The notes under the pieces were generated by a model. That model searched no databases. It saw nothing but the letters and a program-made list of their open reading frames with translations, and was not told the DNA's origin. Shown piece by piece: positions 4,003 to 57,069 of a stretch of 64,000 nt of DNA. How positions within the stretch are numbered: position 1 is the stretch's first letter; every line of letters begins with the position of its first letter. Origin of the DNA: Candidatus Latescibacterota bacterium (GTDB taxonomy: Bacteria; Latescibacterota; UBA2968; SICM01); assembly GCA_965217865.1 (NCBI GenBank), contig CBDCJO010000002.1:2592001-2656000 (forward strand), given 5' to 3'. The translations under genes and the position numbers were made by a program.

Positions 4003-4446
4003 ATGAAAAAATCCATCCGTGGAATCTGGTCCGGGATACCCATGCCGTGGAAAGAGACGGAGGAACTGGATCGCGCCGCTTTGATCCGAACGGTGAAGCG
4101 GTGCGTAGAAGGTGGGAGCCACGGAATCTATGTGGCGGGAACTACGGGTGAGTTTCACGCCATGGGAGAAGCCCAGTTTCTGGACGTGGTCGAGACGTTT
4201 ACGGCCGCGATGAGAAACTATGCTTCCACCGGAGTCCAGGTGGGTTGCGGAGGTTTCTCGTTACGTCAAGTGTTCGATCGTATCGAAACGGCGACCGCCA
4301 ATGGGTGTGACGAGATTCAGCTTCCGTTGCCCGGTTGGGAGCCTTTGGACGATGACGAGGTGCTTGGCTTTTTCCAGGTCATTGCCGAGCGATTTCAGCC
4401 GTCCGGATCACTGTTTATGATAATACCAACTGCGGACGAACCATAG
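4003..4446 (+). pseudogene. Dihydrodipicolinate synthase (DapA/NanA)-family protein, N-terminal half, truncated by IS1182 copy 2
   Basis: GIYVAGTTGEF motif; apparent 1-bp frameshift near 4395 (alternative frame RITVYDN); ends at the IS right IR. Confidence 0.8.
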
Positions 4447-5941
4447 CAGCCCGTTGAAGAACTACCTTTCAACGCACATAAACGGAAAAGACGCCTGGAG
4501 TGCGGGTCAGATAAATCAAGGTAAGGAGATTGAGCAGGAGACGCTGATAAGAGGTTAAAAAGGTGACCGAGGGCAGCAAACGTGATTGTAGGACGAGCAG
4601 TAGACGCTGCAAGGCCTTGGCCAGGTCCTGGAGGGCCACGCCCATCACTTTGCGCATGAGCAGAGCCAGGTTGCAGCCCCCGATGTGGATCAGCAAACGC
4701 TTGAGGATATTGCCGCGGTCTCTCAAGTGCAACCTGCGCATGCCACCGGTATCATATGTGTGAGCGATGGTTCTTTCCACCCGTTCTGCACGACTTCGGC
4801 GCAAGGCCTTGCCGCGATCTCCCTTGATCCGGCGTCGATTCGCATATACCGCGGCCTGCTCATCTCGTCGGCCGTTCCACTTGCGGCGTCCCCGATCCGG
4901 TTCTGAAATGTAACTCCGGATGCCGCCTTGCTTCAGACTGGTCAATACATCGTTGCTATGATATCCTTTGTCCGCAACCACCTCCCGTATACGCTGTCTG
5001 TGCAAACGTTTGGCAGCTTTTTCGTCCTTCGCGACCTGCTTGAGATTGAGCTGCGCCTCGAGCAGCGTCCAGGGCAACGACTCGGTATCTCCTTCATCTG
5101 CTCCCGACAACGCCACTGCCACAATGGCATTGGTGTCCAGATCCACCGCGTGCTCCACCTTGTGCGCCATGTGCGTGCGACCGTCCTTCATCTTAGCGAT
5201 CTTGGCATCCGGGTCGTGCGGGTGCTCCCAGTCCTGGTTCGATCCCTTCTTCGGTCGCTTCTTATCGATCTTGGACAAGTCCTCGCGGGTAGGCGTTTCA
5301 ATGCCCGAGGCCTTGGCCAGATTCTCAAGGAATGCCTGGTAGCCTTCACCCGTGTCACGGCGTACAATGCTGCGCATCGCGGCGTTGGCCTCCAGTGTCG
5401 TAGCATCCACGCCCAACGTCTTCCCCTTCACCAGACCCGCTTTGCACAAGACCCTCAGGATCCACTTGAAAACCGCTTCGTGAACTTCCAAGGGAAGCCG
5501 ATGCCGGATGCGAGACAGGCTGGAATGATCCGGGGTCTGTTCGTCAAGGGCATACCCCAAAAACCGGCGCAACGTCAGCGAGTCAGATACACGCCATTCG
5601 ATCCCACGTTCCGAATCAAGTCCCTCGAAATACCCAATCAAAAGCATCCGAAAATAAACCCCGGGCGGAATGCCCTTGCGACCCATATGAGGAGCGTAAT
5701 ACCGCTGGCAAAGCCCCTCGACGAACTCGTCGAAGCCGTTCGCCCCCAATACCTGATTCAGCTTCTCGTAGAACGGATGACCCGGAGATTTCACCAAAGT
5801 GTTCGATGTGATGAACAGGTTTTCCTGTCTCTGTCGTCCTCGTTTTCCCATTGCCATTTGCTCGTCCTCCCTTCTCAGTTTGAACCTGATATATCATAGG
5901 ACCAAACCACAAGGAAAGACAACAGTCATCTTGGCATAAAC
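4447..5941 (-). mobile_element. IS1182 copy 2, lacking the left IR (about 20 bp missing)
   Basis: Right IR at 4447; identity to copy 1 stops at 5941; 12-bp in-frame deletion (GTPK) in the transposase. Confidence 0.9.
4469..5857 (-). CDS. IS1182-family transposase
   Basis: Nearly identical to 479-1879. Confidence 0.9.
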   Translation of the reverse strand: MAMGKRGRQRQENLFITSNTLVKSPGHPFYEKLNQVLGANGFDEFVEGLCQRYYAPHMGRKGIPPGVYFRMLLIGYFEGLDSERGIEWRVSDSLTLRRFLGYALDEQTPDHSSLSRIRHRLPLEVHEAVFKWILRVLCKAGLVKGKTLGVDATTLEANAAMRSIVRRDTGEGYQAFLENLAKASGIETPTREDLSKIDKKRPKKGSNQDWEHPHDPDAKIAKMKDGRTHMAHKVEHAVDLDTNAIVAVALSGADEGDTESLPWTLLEAQLNLKQVAKDEKAAKRLHRQRIREVVADKGYHSNDVLTSLKQGGIRSYISEPDRGRRKWNGRRDEQAAVYANRRRIKGDRGKALRRSRAERVERTIAHTYDTGGMRRLHLRDRGNILKRLLIHIGGCNLALLMRKVMGVALQDLAKALQRLLLVLQSRLLPSVTFLTSYQRLLLNLLTLIYLTRTPGVFSVYVR

Positions 5942-21739: not shown

Positions 21740-23886
21740 CTACGGAGTCAACGGAGCCGCCAAACGCTTGTCCATGATCGCTACCACCTCGGTAGCGTTG
21801 AAATCGGCCTTCAGCTTATCTCTTAGTGAGTTGTCCAGGCTGGTTACGTTGACGTACAGCCGCTGGAGGTTGCCGTCGATCCGCTCGGAAGCGACTCCGT
21901 GTATTTTTCGGAGTTGATGTGGGAAGGTACGTTCAGCAGGAATGCAGATCATGAACGCAACCGGCTGATAACCGTTTTTCATGTAGAAGTGATCAACATA
22001 TCCGCCTGCCGAACCTAGAGTGACGGTGTGGCCCCCTCTTCGACGGACTTGGCTTTCAAAGAAGTGGAGCAAGTGGCTGCCAAACCCCTTTCCAGCAAAT
22101 TCCTCTGCAACGGCTATCCCCTGAAGGCAAATCGTGCCGTGCTCGCACCGTTCCTTGTGTGCCGGCCATCCATAACAGATTGCAATGACCTTTCCTTGCC
22201 TGCGACACGCAACGAACAGATCGGGATACTCCCTACGCATGGCATCCCAGGTGCCATTTGGGGATTCGTCAAGGTATCGGGCCTTGAGCGTGCGGGCTTC
22301 TTCGATCTCTGAATTACTGAGACAGTCGAGGTCTAGCAGCCTGTTGAAAAAGTGCGTTTATGCCAAGATGACTGTTGTCTTTCCTTGTGGTTTGGTCCTA
22401 TGATATATCAGGTTCAAACTGAGAAGGGAGGACGAGCAAATGGCAATGGGAAAACGAGGCCGACAGAGACAGGAAAACCTGTTCATCGCATCGAACACTT
22501 TGGTGAAATCTCCGGGTCATCCGTTCTACGAGAAGCTGAATCAGGTATTGGGGGCGAACGGCTTCGACGAGTTCGTCGAGGGGCTTTGCCAGCGGTATTA
22601 CGCTCCTCATATGGGTCGCAAGGGCATTCCGCCGGGGTTTATTTTCGGATGCTTTTGATTGGGTATTTCGAGGGACTTGATTCGGAACGTGGGATCGAAT
22701 GGCGTGTATCTGACTCGCTGACGTTGCGCCGGTTTTTGGGGTATGCCCTTGACGAACAGACCCCGGATCATTCCAGCCTGTCTCGCATCCGGCATCGGCT
22801 TCCCTTGGAAGTTCACGAAGCGGTTTTCAAGTGGATCCTGAGGGTCTTGTGCAAAGCGGGTCTGGTGAAGGGGAAGACGTTGGGCGTGGATGCTACGACA
22901 CTGGAGGCCAACGCCGCGATGCGCAGCATTGTACGCCGTGACACGGGTGAAGGCTACCAGGCATTCCTTGAGAATCTGGCCAAGGCCTCGGGCATTGAAA
23001 CGCCTACCCGCGAGGACTTGTCCAAGATCGATAAGAAGCGACCGAAGAAGGGATCGAACCAGGACTGGGAGCACCCGCACGACCCGGATGCCAAGATCAC
23101 TAAGATGAAGGACGGTCGCACGCACATGGCGCACAAGGTGGAGCACGCGGTGGATCTGGACACCAATGCCATTGTGGCAGTGGCGTTGTCGGGAGCAGAT
23201 GAAGGAGATACCGAGTCGTTGTCCTGGACGCTGCTCGAGGCGCAGCTCAATCTCAAGCAGGTCGCGAAGGACGAAAAAGCTGCTAAGCGTTTGCACAGAC
23301 AGCGTATACGGGAGGTGGTTGCGGACAAAGGATATCATAGCAACGATGTATTGACCAGTCTGAAGCAAGGCGGCATCCGGAGTTACATTTCAGAACCGGA
23401 TCGGGGACGCCGCAAGTGGAACGGCCGACGAGATGAGCAGGCCGCGGTATATGCGAATCGACGCCGGATCAAGGGAGATCGCGGCAAGGCCTTGCGCCGA
23501 AGTCGTGCAGAACGGGTGGAAAGAACCATCGCTCACACATATGATACCGGTGGCATGCGCAGGTTGCACTTGAGAGACCGCGGCAATATCCTCAAGCGTT
23601 TGCTGATCCACATCGGGGGCTGCAACCTGGCTCTGCTCATGCGCAAAGTGATGGGCGTAGGTACTCCGAAGGCCCTCCAGGACCTGGCCAAGGCCTTGCA
23701 GCGTCTACTGCTCGTCCTACAATCACGTTTGCTGCCCTCGGTCACCTTTTTAACCTCTTATCAGCGTCTCCTGCTCAATCTCCTTACCTTGATTTATCTG
23801 ACCCGCACTCCAGGCGTCTTTTCCGTTTATGTGCGTTGAAAGGTAGTTCTTCAACGGGCTGATAGGGATTCGCCTTCGGTGCTCAT
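21740..23886 (-). pseudogene. GNAT-family acetyltransferase interrupted near its 5' end by IS1182 copy 3
   Basis: GIAVAEEFAGKGFGS motif A. Excising the IS restores MSTEGESLDLDCLSNSE in frame (ATG at 23886 with a GGAG RBS). Confidence 0.85.
22337..23861 (+). mobile_element. IS1182 copy 3 (1525 bp), transposase frameshifted by a 1-bp deletion near 22632
   Basis: Both IRs present; flanks CTAG and ATAG; CCGCCCGGGG of copy 1 is CCGCCGGGG here. Confidence 0.92.
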
Positions 23887-45700: not shown

Positions 45701-46885
45701 ATGATATTTGAAAGAAATAAGCCACATGTCAATGTTGGGACCATTGGACACGTAGGCCACGGAAAGACAATGCTAACGGCTGCGATTACCAAGGTTCTGG
45801 CTTTGGCTGGGCTTGCTGAGTTTATCCCTCCTGATGCTCTAGACAAGGCCCCCGAGGAGAGGGAACGCAGGCTCACAATCAAGGCCAGACATGTAGAGTA
45901 CGAAACAGAGATACACCACTATGCTCACGTGGACTGCCCGGGCCATGTTGACTACGTCAAAAACATGATTAATGGTACTGCACAGATGGATGGCGCTATC
46001 CTGGTAGTTAGTGCAGTGGATGGTCCGATGCCTCAGACACAAGAATATATTCTGCTCGCCAGGCAAGTCAATGTGCCTTCCATTATCGTCTATATCAACA
46101 AAACTGATATGGTGGAGGATCCTGACCAGATAGATCTAATAGAACTTGAGACAAGGGATCTTTTAAGCCAATACGGCTTTCCTGGAGATGAAGTTCCGGT
46201 TGTTCGGGGGTCATCATTAAAGGCACTTGAGTACCATGGCCCTGGAGCTGACGAAGCTAAGTGCATCTGGGAGCTGCTCAATGCCATGGATGAATACATT
46301 CCGGTGCCTAAGCGGGATTTCGACGAGGACTTCTTGATGCCGGTTGAGGATGTGTTCACAATTACGGGACGCGGGACAGTTGGCACAGGCCGAATCGAGC
46401 GAGGCGTGGTAAAAATAGGTGATGAGGTGGAGATCATTGGTTTCAGAGAGTCGCGTAAGGCAGTTGTTAAGGGAGTCGAAATGTTCAATAAGATCCTAGA
46501 TAAGGGGATGGCGGGTGACAATGCAGGTCTTTACTTGGGGGGTATAAAGAAGGAGAATTTGACGCGCGGAATGGTAATTGCAAAACCAGGTTCCATTGAG
46601 GCGCACAGTAAGTTTTGCTGTGAAGTCTATGTGTTAACTGAAAAAGAGGGAGGACGAAGCACACCCTTCTCTTCCACATATCGTCCCCAGTTCTATTTTC
46701 GAACGACAGATGTTACCGGGAGTTTTCAACTACCAAACGGGATCGAAAAAGCGATGCCGGGTGAAAAGATGACCATGACAGTCAAGTTGGCATCCCGAAT
46801 CGCTTTGGAGCCGGAACTTAGATTCGCTGTTCGAGAGGGGGGCCTGACTATCGGTGCGGGTGTGGTTACACAAATCCTGGAGTAA
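45701..46885 (+). CDS. tuf: Elongation factor Tu, divergent solitary paralog
   Basis: Full-length 394 aa, collinear with EF-Tu ([41 protein letters not shown]) but with non-canonical G1 and G2 motifs. Confidence 0.93.
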
Positions 46886-53335: not shown

Positions 53336-56300
53336 TTAACAGGCATCCCCACAAATAGCCTGCTGAAGTCATCAACGAGTGGATCCTCCTCTTCCCCATC
53401 GGCAGCTCGCGCAAAGACGATCCCCGGGCGCTTCGCACGTCGCGCCCTTGCTAGCACGCCGTAACCCTTTGGCGCGCTTATTTCTCGCACTTCCTCAGCT
53501 TTCTTGCGTATCTCGAGTTGGACCCGCGCAAGCCCATTTCTCGCCCCGAAAACACGGGCAAAAACCTCTTCAGGCGTCAGGCCATCCCGCCAACCGTTGG
53601 GGATCGGAACAAGCTTTCCTTCCACGTCCGGTACGACCCCGCTGCCGCCCACGTATTGGCGAAGCTGGTGGACGCTACCGCGCGCCCCGCTTTTCGACAT
53701 CAGGATCACCTGTCCTATATTGTTGTCATCATACGCGCGAAAGCTCATCAACCGAGCCTCAACCTCCCCGGCAAAAGCCAGCCACTGATCAGGGTCGTTC
53801 TCCTCCGGTTGGGGTGGGAGATCCAAATCCTCCCCAATGAACGGGCTCACAGATGCACCCATCCCCTTTGCGACCTCGAAACCGAGCCGCATCAGCCGTT
53901 CGGAGGTTTCGAGGGCCTTTTGGCCCCCCTCGTGTTCAACGATGCGTTGCAGGGCGTTAATAAGGGTCCACCTCGTGATGATTCCGTCTTTTCTCCCCAC
54001 CTCGGCGCCCACGAGCTTCCCGATTTCCCCCCATCCTCTGGTGGAAAGACTCAACCAGGCAAGCCCGTACACCGCATCCATTCGGGGTGGAAGCAGATGG
54101 ATCAAATCGGGATCACGTTCAAGATGTGCGGCAACGGAAAGACGATCCCTCGCTTCCTCCTGCCCGGCCTGGGTGATCGGCAGGAAGACAGCGGCCTGAT
54201 CCCCGTCAAAGTCGGCGTTCATCATCTCGCATGCCAGAGGATGGAGGCGAATCACCCGGTCCGGATGCCGAACGGGACGAAATGCGATGAAGGACGTGGG
54301 CGAAAAGGTCGGTGCACGATATACGACCACCCACGAACGTTCCATAATCTTGTCGAGTGCTTTGCTCGCACGTTGACTGCGTTCACGCACCTCCTTCTCT
54401 CCTCCGAGCTCACGGATGACCAAAGGCCCGAATAAAGTCCAGGCGATCTCCTCAGCAAGCCCCACCTGATCGATACGCAGGTCTGGTCCTGGAACGATCA
54501 CCGTGCGTCCGCTGAAAGAAAACCGGCTGGCAAATTGCACGTGAGCGGGTGTGCGGAGGAAGCTCAAAGTGTCGCCAACGCCAAATTGCAAGTGGGAGGG
54601 AGTGAGAAGCACCTCGAAAAGGTCATTTACCCGGGCTTCGAGCTGGCCAACCGCATTCTCAGCCAGTGGATCCGGGGCCTGACTGTCGAGCATTCGTTCC
54701 AACCGCGCGTTGGCCTCCACCAGCGTCTTGAACTCAGGCAAATCCTTTAGCTCCCCCACCTCGGCCAGCGTGTGCTGACGAAGCCAGGGGTGCGGCAGCG
54801 GGCGCACCAGTTTGAGCGTCGCATCCTGAGGCCGTTCAAATCGGAACCTCAGCTTCCCATCCTGGAATTCAGCCAGGATGCCTGCGGCCGTCAGGCGCCG
54901 CACCAGGTCGGCGAATTTCGGAGCCGGGGGTCCAGCCTGCTCCACCACTCCGGTTGCAAGGCGCGTCGCGAGCCTCTCCGCATCGTCCCGGTCAGTCGCA
55001 AGCGTGTTGAAAACCTCCCGGACGGTCTCAAAGGCCTTCGCCTCACGCAGGGCCTGGTACTCGATTTCACCCACTCCTTGACACCTGCTTTTGTCCACCG
55101 AGGCGTGGATCTTGTTCCTGACGATGTGAAGGGTGCGCCCCCAGTAGACCCACCCCACCGTGCTCGGACGCTGAAGCTTCCGACCCTTGAGGGTGAGTGT
55201 CTCCATCCCGTCCTTTGTGAAACCCGCTTTCGTGAGGCGCGCGCGAATTTCGGCTTCATCCGGCGCCTTATACGGGGACACTACAGCCGGTTTCCCCTCG
55301 GCCTTCGCAATGCGGCCCATCACCGCCTCTCGAACCTGGCCAAAGTTCATCCGTGATGGGAGGCCGCAAACACTATAGATAAGTTCCACAGGCCTGCCGT
55401 CCGTCAGATGCGGCATCTCATCATCGGGAAGGATGCAGGACACCACCCCCTTGGCCCCGTGTCGGTTGCTTAGCTTGTCGCCCGGCTCAACGGGGTGGGG
55501 GAAGTTAAGTCTTTGGGCGCACGACTCGCTGATCACGACGGCATCTTCAAAAGTATTTGCATCCCAGGAGATGAAAGCGGTCAGAAGGCTGCGTCCACAC
55601 CAGAAGTCGGGTGCATCGGGTTCCGCACCGGTTTGAACATCAGCGGGTTCCGGATCCGGAGGGATCATCCACTGCCGCATCATGTTAGCCCCCATCAGTA
55701 GCCGGTTCGCATCGCTGTGTTCGATAAAGGGGATCATGGAGGCCGAGAGACCGAGGGCCGCCTCAGGACGATCATCGACAACGACCAGCCTCCCGTCGCG
55801 GATCTCGGCGCCATTTGCGATGGTAAGGATGCGGCCAATGTTAGGCCCCTCCGGCGTCTCAAAGGGGCACGTGCGGCCAAAGTGTCCGGGTGCCAGCACG
55901 TTTTCCCTGTCAGGTATGGACAGTCGTCGGAGAAACGTACGCCTGGCCAACCAGTTTGAACGATAGACAGGACCTTTCCCTTCAAGCTCATAGGCATTTA
56001 GATCAAAGAACTCCCGCACCCACGCGTCCAGAAGAAGCCACGTTCGGGCAAGCGGAGCGTCCCAGTGAAGGTTTTCTGGGGCTTCCCCCAGATGCGCCGC
56101 GATGAAGTCGTAGGCCTGTTCCCCGACGGAACGGATCTCAGCAGTCTCGAGCCTATCGTGAGAAGCGACAGGGGGCACCACCTGGCTTTCCCCATCGATC
56201 TCGAAGACCCCATCCGGATCCGGCTGCGGGATATCTTTGTAATCAATCTCTACCTCACTTTCTTTTCCTTGAAGAACGACCTTCACGTCACAGGTATAAG

Positions 56301-56424: not shown

Positions 56425-57023
56425 TCCATCTCCTCCGATCCGGTTTCAAGGTCCTGCCATTCCTGCGCGATTCGCCTTCGTCCGTGATACAGGCGAGACT
56501 TGACGGTGCCCTCCGGAATGCCGAGCCTCTCAGCGACCTCTCGGACATCCATCTCCGCGTCGTAAATCATACGGAAGATATCACGCTTATCTTCTGGTAA
56601 TTCATCGATAAATTGCCGGAGCAGCTTGCCTTGCTCGGTCAGTTCCAGGAGGGCGTCCGGACCGAGGGTTGCGGCGTCTATCATCCAGCCGGGAGCTGAG
56701 CTTTCCTCATCATCGCTGGAATTCGGCAGGATTTCAAGGGGTTGCTCCCGTCGCCGCTGAACAGAGCGAAGGTGGTTGAAGGCCAGGTTGCTCGCGATGC
56801 GGAACAACCAGGCCCGAAAAGGGCCCTGATCGTTCCACTGCTCCGCACGGTTCCATACCCGCAGGAAAACCTCCTGCACCAGGTCCTCTGCCGCAGCCTT
56901 GTCCCGAACAAGCCGGGACAGATGTGAGAAGATCGCCTCGCTGTAGCGGTTGTACAGTTCCCTGAACGCGAACGCATCGCGCTTCAGAATCCGCTCTACG
57001 AGATCTCTATCGGCCTGCTCCAT
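56421..57023 (-). CDS. ECF sigma-70 factor, translationally coupled to the mini-RNAP gene
   Basis: AAEDLVQEVFLRVW, FRAWLFRIA.N, LGIPEGTVKSRL; ATGA stop/start overlap at 56421-56424. Confidence 0.95.
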   Translation of the reverse strand: MEQADRDLVERILKRDAFAFRELYNRYSEAIFSHLSRLVRDKAAAEDLVQEVFLRVWNRAEQWNDQGPFRAWLFRIASNLAFNHLRSVQRRREQPLEILPNSSDDEESSAPGWMIDAATLGPDALLELTEQGKLLRQFIDELPEDKRDIFRMIYDAEMDVREVAERLGIPEGTVKSRLYHGRRRIAQEWQDLETGSEEME

Positions 57024-57041
57024 GAGGGCCCTCTATGGAAA

Positions 57042-57069
57042 AGGACACCGACGCAGTTCCTGAGGTTCA
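57042..57069 (-). promoter_or_regulatory. Putative ECF promoter of the sigma/mini-RNAP operon
   Basis: TGAACC-N16-TGTCCT, about 19 bp upstream of the ATG. Confidence 0.5.

Follow-up and report, generated by a model that had tools for sequence, protein, structure and literature searches.

The closest described systems to the locus reported here are complexes of the canonical RNA polymerase (RNAP) core with an extracytoplasmic function (ECF) σ factor, such as the open promoter complexes (RPo) E. coli σE-RPo and M. tuberculosis σH-RPo, and that of C. thermocellum SigI1 (8i23). Here we analyse a two-gene cassette in a 64,000-nucleotide stretch of a Candidatus Latescibacterota genome (contig CBDCJO010000002.1, positions 2,592,001 to 2,656,000; hereafter the window), in which the gene for an ECF σ factor is followed by that for a single-chain β::β′ RNAP paralog, termed the mini enzyme. 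The cassette resembles the canonical systems in the fold of the β half, the barrels, the NADFDGD motif, the bridge helix, the clamp helices, the dock, the bipartite ECF promoter and the canonical σ region 2.2. However, the mini enzyme is one chain that lacks the flap, Zn ribbon, lobe, fork loop 2, rudder, trigger loop and jaw, and has Ala at clamp positions R275 and E295.

Other systems can be compared with the cassette as far as the available portions of the cited papers go. The yeast pGKL2 ORF6/ORF7 polymerase likewise has a β chain fused to part of β′, is heavily trimmed and has a similar size; however, it has no clamp coiled coil, carries β′ C-terminal regions on a second subunit, is likely of poxviral origin and uses no σ factor (PMC6211774). 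A pGKL2 type was ruled out for the mini enzyme by the presence of clamp helices and the lack of a conserved second subunit among gene neighbours or, with a trigger-loop query, in the host genome. The single-chain phage two-barrel polymerases (P23-45 gp64, gp96 and phi14:2 gp66) and QDE-1 also have both barrels on one polypeptide and a reduced architecture, but the start of the trigger loop is retained there (PMC10770324). The RNAP of Hodgkinia, presumably a working enzyme, has lost the flap tip and bears substitutions at β′ R275, E295 and A302, whereas it is the sole, multi-subunit enzyme of its cell and retains the remaining architecture, catalytic core included (PMC8321222). Like the mini enzyme, co-transcribed soluble ECF anti-σ factors are encoded immediately after the ECF, come under an autoregulated promoter and have no membrane anchor, but none of those described in the available part of PMC8999054 is an RNAP homolog or has an active site. 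No description of the cassette was found in full-text searches of the literature or in one supplement to PMC7826278, the paper that re-classified the ECFs, while subscription journals and other supplements may mention the family; none was found in the available parts of PMC7598289 and PMC8999054. Public clusters of the family are labelled just “hypothetical” or “RNA polymerase family protein”.

Anatomy of the mini enzyme

The host genome has a full canonical rpoBC at another site, in which clamp, flap tip, Zn ribbon and trigger loop are all normal, and the mini enzyme is therefore a paralog. It comprises 1031 residues compared to ~2750 for β plus β′ (~40% of the size), matches Pfam Rpb2_6 and Rpb1_2, and scores far under the thresholds that NCBIfam sets for rpoB and rpoC. 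Profile alignment to E. coli β and β′ (reference sequences from NC_000913, the numbering of which is transferred to β and β′ residues throughout via the alignment made in this analysis) assigned residues 1-523 to a trimmed β and residues 524-1031 to a trimmed β′. The AlphaFold2 model, built from 74 sequences, has a pLDDT of 92.8 and a pTM of 0.90. Superposition of the β half against C. thermocellum β (8i23_C) with VIA gave a Z of 25.2, with a root-mean-square deviation of 2.7 Å over 515 residues, in rows that span residues 1-527 only; a Foldseek search with the model returned many β′ chains among the matches. With its two double-psi barrels, DFDGD and two β lysines, the protein is a two-barrel polymerase by make-up. 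Family counts below refer to 74 close homologs and to 69 distant relatives at 26-50% identity, and the coordinates of all features are collected in Table 1.

The preliminary description of this locus had recognised a segment as the β′ clamp helices, a deleted flap with ~20 residues between FEDAVVIS and GDK, and a missing β′ Zn ribbon, all of which are borne out. Of the two chief surfaces on which σ factors dock, the clamp helices are thus kept and the flap is lost. The clamp segment F565-L606 spans 54607-54732, which differs by only a few bases at each end from the interval 54600..54735 given there. Its best local match against E. coli β and β′ is β′ 269-308, gapless, with 13/42 identical residues and a score of 65, which was reached by 0/1000 shuffled sequences (maximum 53). 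The family profile of this segment matches β′ 268-308 with an independent E-value (iE) of 2.4e-6, and the model folds it into two helices, 563-580 and 585-606, with an invariant proline at the turn. At the flap site, the hhalign alignment to E. coli β jumps residues ~826-1057, which are replaced by a seven-residue loop. The stretch from F292 of FED to G315 of GDK is 23 residues long in 71/74 close and 62/69 distant relatives, leaving none of these with a β flap and flap-tip helix, compared to 251 residues in E. coli β and 270 in the host’s own β. The β′ part from residue 1 to about 225, including the Zn ribbon, is absent; just 38-39 residues connect the end of β to the clamp in 73/74 relatives, and a CxxC motif was found at this junction in 0/74.

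Further losses, not listed in the preliminary description, are those of the trigger loop, jaw, β lobe, fork loop 2 and rudder, the rudder region having 17 residues instead of 42 in 57/74 relatives. The bridge helix is of full length and its profile matches β′ 762-798 (iE 2.6e-6; conservation 0.53). A C-terminal segment is joined straight onto it, with no room for a trigger loop between them. The best, yet weak, profile match of this segment is β′ 1330-1354 (iE 0.11; reverse search 0.019; conservation 0.80), and on the basis of this match and its position the last 45 residues likely represent the final β′ region; the absence of the trigger loop is independent of this assignment. A strict trigger-loop motif occurs in 0/69 distant relatives, in which only 40-59 residues separate the positions of R962 and A1007. 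An E. coli trigger-loop query had no match in the family profile, and in the host genome it matched rpoC only, revealing no second polymerase subunit there. Neither such a subunit nor an alpha gene was found among the conserved neighbours of mini-enzyme loci, and a longer form of the enzyme, sought with the clamp region, appeared in 0/314 candidates. The profile search scored other β-β′ fusions of 2241-2522 residues (P0254, P0264, P0265 and P0266) just below the family; these keep flap-length spacing or a trigger loop; P0260 (1948 residues) and P0270 (1613 residues) have no trigger-loop motif.

The Asp triad of the catalytic motif is intact in 66/69 distant relatives, and β K1065 and K1073 are kept in 62/69 and 65/69, respectively. 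The wider set of β R678, Q688, D814, K1065, K1073, R1106, H1237, H526 and R529 together with β′ R352 and R425 is kept in 58-68/69. For 15 pairs drawn from six genomes in a single genus, the ratio of nonsynonymous to synonymous substitution rates (dN/dS) is ~0.135. As judged from these patterns, with catalytic, NTP-binding and RNA-binding residues conserved, the active site of the mini enzyme is under selection. A pseudogene or assembly artefact was ruled out by the intact frames in almost all of the 54 genomes with the enzyme and by the dN/dS of 0.135. A phage origin was also rejected, with no member of the family in viral contigs or in BFVD. In some assemblies (L009, L011, G012, G108, G115 and G143), the reading frame of the enzyme or of the ECF is broken or contains a stop, owing to error or decay.

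The cognate ECF σ factor and its probable match to the enzyme

The cognate σ factor consists of σ2 and σ4 only, connected by a short linker, and has the D/Q/E residues in region 2.2, in line with an ECF (group 4) assignment. The stop codon of its gene and the start codon of the polymerase gene overlap. A member of the same ECF clade is located directly upstream of the enzyme in 74/79 loci with room for it, the window’s locus counted; the five misses are a fragment in the window’s own genome, a locus with the ECF 227 bases off, and three loci without an ECF (L025, L067 and L081). Among 151 genomes of the phylum, 54 have the enzyme and 52 the ECF clade: both occur in 51, the enzyme alone in 3 (one with a broken ECF remnant), the ECF alone in 1 (at a contig end) and neither in 96, these genomes being related and hence not independent, with 20 carriers from one genus. 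No conserved neighbour other than the ECF was found across the mini-enzyme loci. By source names, relatives come from Latescibacterota, Poribacteria, Hydrogenedentes, Chloroflexota, Planctomycetota and Armatimonadota.

Some genomes carry additional or rearranged copies. The fragment in the window’s genome is a 5′-truncated second enzyme copy without an ECF (G000:C2:2438878-2439585; L015:5876-6607, minus strand), which is 88% identical over residues 797-1029 and lies near insertion sequence (IS) copies and a Cas2-like open reading frame (ORF). Two cassettes, each with its own ECF, are present in G077 (C1:1427408-1431186 and 3367758-3371734) and in G147 (C217 and C279); the two enzymes of G077 are clearly divergent, with 54% and 42% identity to the query. 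In P0122, an ECF σ2 plus linker lacking σ4 is fused in frame to the enzyme N-terminus. It is the sole fusion among 3061 candidates, is found in two full-length ENA records and has a joining stretch that looks non-coding; we judged it a local rearrangement.

The clamp-tip residues that we take, from holoenzyme structures, to face σ2 were followed through the family. Among the close relatives (n = 74), N276 is kept in 73, R278 (as R or K) in 73, R281 in 67, P288 in 74, I291 (as L) in 73 and L299 in 74. Among the distant ones (n = 69), R278 is R or K in 51, R281 is R or K in 48, P288 is kept in 63 and I291 is L or I in 64. Other positions have changed: R275 is retained in no close relative, being A in 57, while E295 is A in 59 and A302 is R in 57, and in distant relatives A occupies the R275 position in 51 and the E295 position in 45, whereas A302 varies, with A in 22. 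Substitution of β′ R275, E295 or A302 impairs holoenzyme formation, in E. coli already as single changes at R275 and E295 (PMC8321222). ECF σ2 domains bind the β′ coiled coil via a conserved polar surface (PMC6411747, PMC6648896), and the D, Q and E of region 2.2 are nearly invariant in the cognate ECFs (n = 72 unless otherwise given). It appears that the clamp surface has been remodelled and probably still binds σ, and we regard physical binding between the ECF and the mini enzyme as quite likely.

The available part of PMC6648896 lists seven σE residues that touch the flap tip, along with three linker residues, and describes the linker as the least conserved ECF part. Cognate ECFs were compared at these positions with 34 of 43 other ECFs, which served as controls because they have both D and Q in region 2.2 and a complete σ4; four more loci were too short. 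At the L151 position, only 7/72 cognate ECFs have a hydrophobic residue, the others having mostly E or D, compared to 32/34 controls, and the V185 position is W in 60/72 compared to 0/34. Hydrophobic residues are also rarer at the positions of L127 (2/72 versus 15/33) and I189 (5/66 versus 9/27), the latter being mostly polar in cognates. These σ4 changes are inherited within one clade and reflect few events, yet they lie where a σ factor released from the flap would be expected to change. The linker carries a PxWMxD motif, which was not seen as such in 17 other ECFs of the host genome. This segment is disordered in the model of the free ECF, as expected for one that folds on a partner. Overall, the sign of a matched pair appears stronger on σ4 and the linker than on the clamp, and specificity is more likely to reside there. 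The preliminary description had suggested that it may lie on a diverged clamp surface, a proposal that finds no direct support, as region 2.2 of the ECF is universal.

Covariation was calculated for 58 non-redundant pairs out of 71 with a clamp, from 104 loci with both genes. The top z of 5.4 is lower than most of the maxima from 15 shuffled pairings (5.2-7.3), and the clamp against region 2.2 gave a mean z of 0.03. Mirror trees of 46 pairs correlated with r of 0.89, and 13/19 supported ECF splits recur; because adjacent genes are co-inherited, this correlation is not evidence of contact.

Promoter and transcription of the cassette

A -35/-10 promoter of the ECF group 4 autoregulated type is present upstream of the ECF gene, its activity being predicted. 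The pattern GAAC-16 bases-GTGTC, with a fixed spacer, occurs in 68/71 upstream regions in a search seeded on GAAC, and the cassette promoter has the highest position weight matrix (PWM) score in the genome. Ten bases past the last C, a purine is found at 69/69 sites, preceded by T at 55/69. At loci with long leaders (n = 23, some near-duplicates), the purine is kept in 23/23 and the preceding T in 21/23, so that the pattern is not merely a ribosome-binding site; the conserved purine is the predicted start site.

In 10/14 genomes of genus g4, the strict pattern has a single occurrence, the one at the cassette. Relaxed sites number 57 in the window’s own genome, of which 4 are intergenic with a gene behind, compared to 1-12 in six control patterns. 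In five other genomes they number 38, 46, 29, 35 and 45, compared to 34, 38, 62, 12 and 26 for reversed controls. With the strict site confined to the cassette and no consistent excess of relaxed sites, the main target of the σ factor is its own operon. A PWM scan gave 12 sites at a score ≥ 18 compared to 0 in a 2-Mb simulation, and a small further regulon may exist. Three close and similar one-mismatch promoter copies on one strand (G048:C1:1612537, 1614424 and 1617790) possibly belong to the same or a related ECF.

A terminator scan found 5 compared to 4.5 by chance. Passenger genes of 381-620 residues lie between the ECF and the enzyme in five genomes inspected, indicating read-through over > 5 kb and processive transcription from the cassette promoter. 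In genus g4, the passengers encode a 381-residue protein with a weak TPR match (L221:4467-5612, L222:1660-2850 and L224:3226-4371) or ABC transporter proteins (L223:3435-5228 and L277:984-2846). Coordinates suggest similar 2-kb inserts in G078, G079, G082, G085 and G088.

Table 1. Coordinates, in window positions, of the cassette genes and their features
Feature	Position	Strand	Basis
ECF-type promoter TGAACY-N14-GGTGTC (-35, -10)	57044..57069	minus	conserved spacer, PWM
Predicted transcription start, purine after T	57034..57034	minus	conserved offset
ECF σ factor gene, 200 aa	56421..57023	minus	Pfam Sigma70_r2 and r4_2, ORF table, clade-specific alignment
ECF region 2.2 (aa 45-54), canonical clamp-binding D47, Q50, E51	56862..56891	minus	72, 72 and 70 of 72
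PxWMxD motif, σ2-σ4 linker (aa 111-116)	56676..56693	minus	P 66, W 64, M 55, D 67 of 72
ECF D155 at place of σE flap-contact L151	56559..56561	minus	residue counts; contact per available part of PMC6648896
ECF W189 at place of σE flap-contact V185	56457..56459	minus	W counts in cognate ECFs and controls
Single-chain minimal β::β′ RNA polymerase paralog, 1031 aa	53329..56424	minus	ORF, Pfam, profile alignment, model
Seven-residue loop replacing whole β flap (aa 305-311)	55492..55512	minus	hhalign, spacing counts
β/β′ fusion junction and lid-like strands (aa 524-561), invariant PW 546-547	54742..54855	minus	profile alignment, model, family counts
Clamp helices (aa 562-606) = β′ 266-310	54607..54741	minus	alignment, model, family counts
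Catalytic NADFDGD motif (aa 736-742)	54199..54219	minus	three Asp in 72, 74 and 74 of 74
Bridge helix (aa 948-982), full length, second half variable	53479..53583	minus	model helix 951-982
C-terminal segment (aa 985-1028), likely β′ C-terminal clamp region	53341..53472	minus	weak profile match, position

Proposed role of the pair and alternatives

Deletion of the trigger loop slows RNAP by orders of magnitude, and an enzyme that has lost its trigger loop, lobe, jaw, rudder and flap is expected to be slow and to have a weak grip on long RNA; with such properties, the mini enzyme is unlikely to be the maker of the operon’s mRNA. In the available part of PMC10120043, the trigger loop is termed essential for catalysis. 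We give about an even chance to a model in which the pair forms a dedicated, slow initiation complex for short transcripts that limits its own σ factor, the mini enzyme being a catalytically competent anti-σ factor. The ECF region 2 would dock on the retained clamp helices, and the linker would thread into the cleft of the single-chain polymerase. Without a flap, the pair would open the cassette’s own promoter and, for want of a trigger loop, make only short RNA and slowly, likely short purine-rich products. The σ4 domain, freed from the need to grip a flap, could afford an acidic residue at one contact and Trp at another; thus detuned, the ECF would hold the host core less well and favour the mini enzyme. 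The long mRNA (3.7 kb, or up to ~5.7 kb with passengers) would be made by the ECF on the host core, in which clamp and flap are canonical. The mini enzyme would take the ECF from the host core, occupy the promoter and start but rarely escape, closing a negative feedback loop that may be read through the active site (NTP supply or a ligand). An anti-σ role is suggested by the gene sitting at the usual anti-σ position, with no other conserved neighbour.

A number of observations speak against a dedicated complex of this kind. R275 and E295 are mostly Ala, and ECF region 2.2 shows no clear change to offset this; compensation is hinted at only by a scarcity of acidic residues just ahead of region 2.2, at the σE G44 position (26/72 cognate ECFs compared to 27/34 controls). 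Clamp-helix conservation (0.59-0.64) is not above the protein mean of 0.67, and the clamp helices have the highest dN/dS among the tested segments (0.34, a noisy and upward-biased value). The retained tip residues serve folding too, and clamp-tip residues also serve the binding of NusG-family proteins. Within σ4, the flap contacts V131, I135 and I181 stay hydrophobic in cognate ECFs, the F132 position is often polar in cognates and controls alike, and the change at L151 goes back to a single event that was inherited rather than arising 65 times. Given its strictly spaced -35 element, the cassette promoter may have the host core as its only user, and a two-gene loop without a regulon has no obvious output.

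Much of this evidence would also suit an arrangement in which the ECF serves the host core only and drives a σ-independent nucleic-acid enzyme (primer synthesis, RNA 3′-end chemistry or hybrid binding), with the clamp helices kept for structure or another factor. Region 2.2 of the ECF is canonical, as are the host β′ clamp and flap tip; R275 and E295 are lost, clamp conservation is average, and ECF operons are often autoregulated. The cassette has a -35 element with strict spacing, and such an element is normally read by a flap-bearing core. Flap-tip mutants fail at -35 promoters, according to the available part of PMC8321222. Such an arrangement nevertheless leaves unexplained why the ECF clade almost never occurs without the enzyme and why a σ4 flap contact was lost and the linker conserved, and the enzyme has switched to other promoters or σ factors in just 3/79 loci (L025, L067 and L081); we consider it unlikely.

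The loss of the flap matched by the loss of a flap-contact residue, together with the complete catalytic set, could instead point to a fully orthogonal, processive second holoenzyme that exerts positive feedback on its own operon without the host core, with the dock, the junction strands or the σ linker keeping σ4 in place. Invariant surface-type residues lie near the RNA exit side (PW 546-547, W662 and W698), the yeast pGKL2 enzyme, which has no clamp, lid or rudder, is processive (PMC6211774), and cores without a flap tip exist in Hodgkinia (PMC8321222). Since the trigger loop is missing, and the lobe, jaw and rudder too, we hold this to be improbable. A similarly small chance is given to an off-DNA decoy, an RNAP mimic that would sequester the ECF or other σ factors and free them on a ligand such as an RNAP-targeting antibiotic. 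The anti-σ gene position with overlapping stop and start, the partly retained rifamycin-pocket residues H526 and R529 and switch regions, and the lack of a trigger loop would fit a decoy. However, residues that bind template and hybrid (β′ R352 and R425; β K1065, K1073 and H1237) and the Asp triad are conserved at 26-50% identity, beyond the needs of a sponge, no regulon was found for a freed σ factor to activate, and the S531 position is variable among the rows shown. The preliminary description had proposed an orthogonal pair or a σ decoy: a matched pair gains support from σ4, the linker and co-occurrence, whereas a pure decoy is disfavoured because catalytic and RNA-binding residues are conserved, and a processive orthogonal enzyme is disfavoured for its missing trigger loop.

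Elsewhere in the window, a stand-alone second EF-Tu gene (45701-46885, plus strand) is 67% identical to the copy near rpoBC, has G for the P-loop D (GHVGHGKT compared to GHIDHGKT) and is followed by an IS630-like element. A 1.5-kb IS is present in three copies with 99% identity (373-1907, 4441-5941 and 22333-23868), and also in L015.

Returning to the dedicated initiation complex, the broader claim that the cassette encodes a mini enzyme and a co-evolved ECF that form a private holoenzyme for one promoter, acting as a catalytic anti-σ factor or short-RNA synthase, and would thereby be the smallest σ-dependent machine and a natural two-barrel polymerase without a trigger loop, is a tentative one that we place somewhat below an even chance. 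If the pair is orthogonal, it would offer a transcription module of 1230 residues for synthetic biology. The family presents a natural deletion experiment on σ-dependent promoter opening and -35 reading without a flap, and on the role of an enzyme without a trigger loop. Bacteria are regarded as having one RNA polymerase core; in 54/151 sampled genomes of the window’s phylum, this family is a second conserved core.

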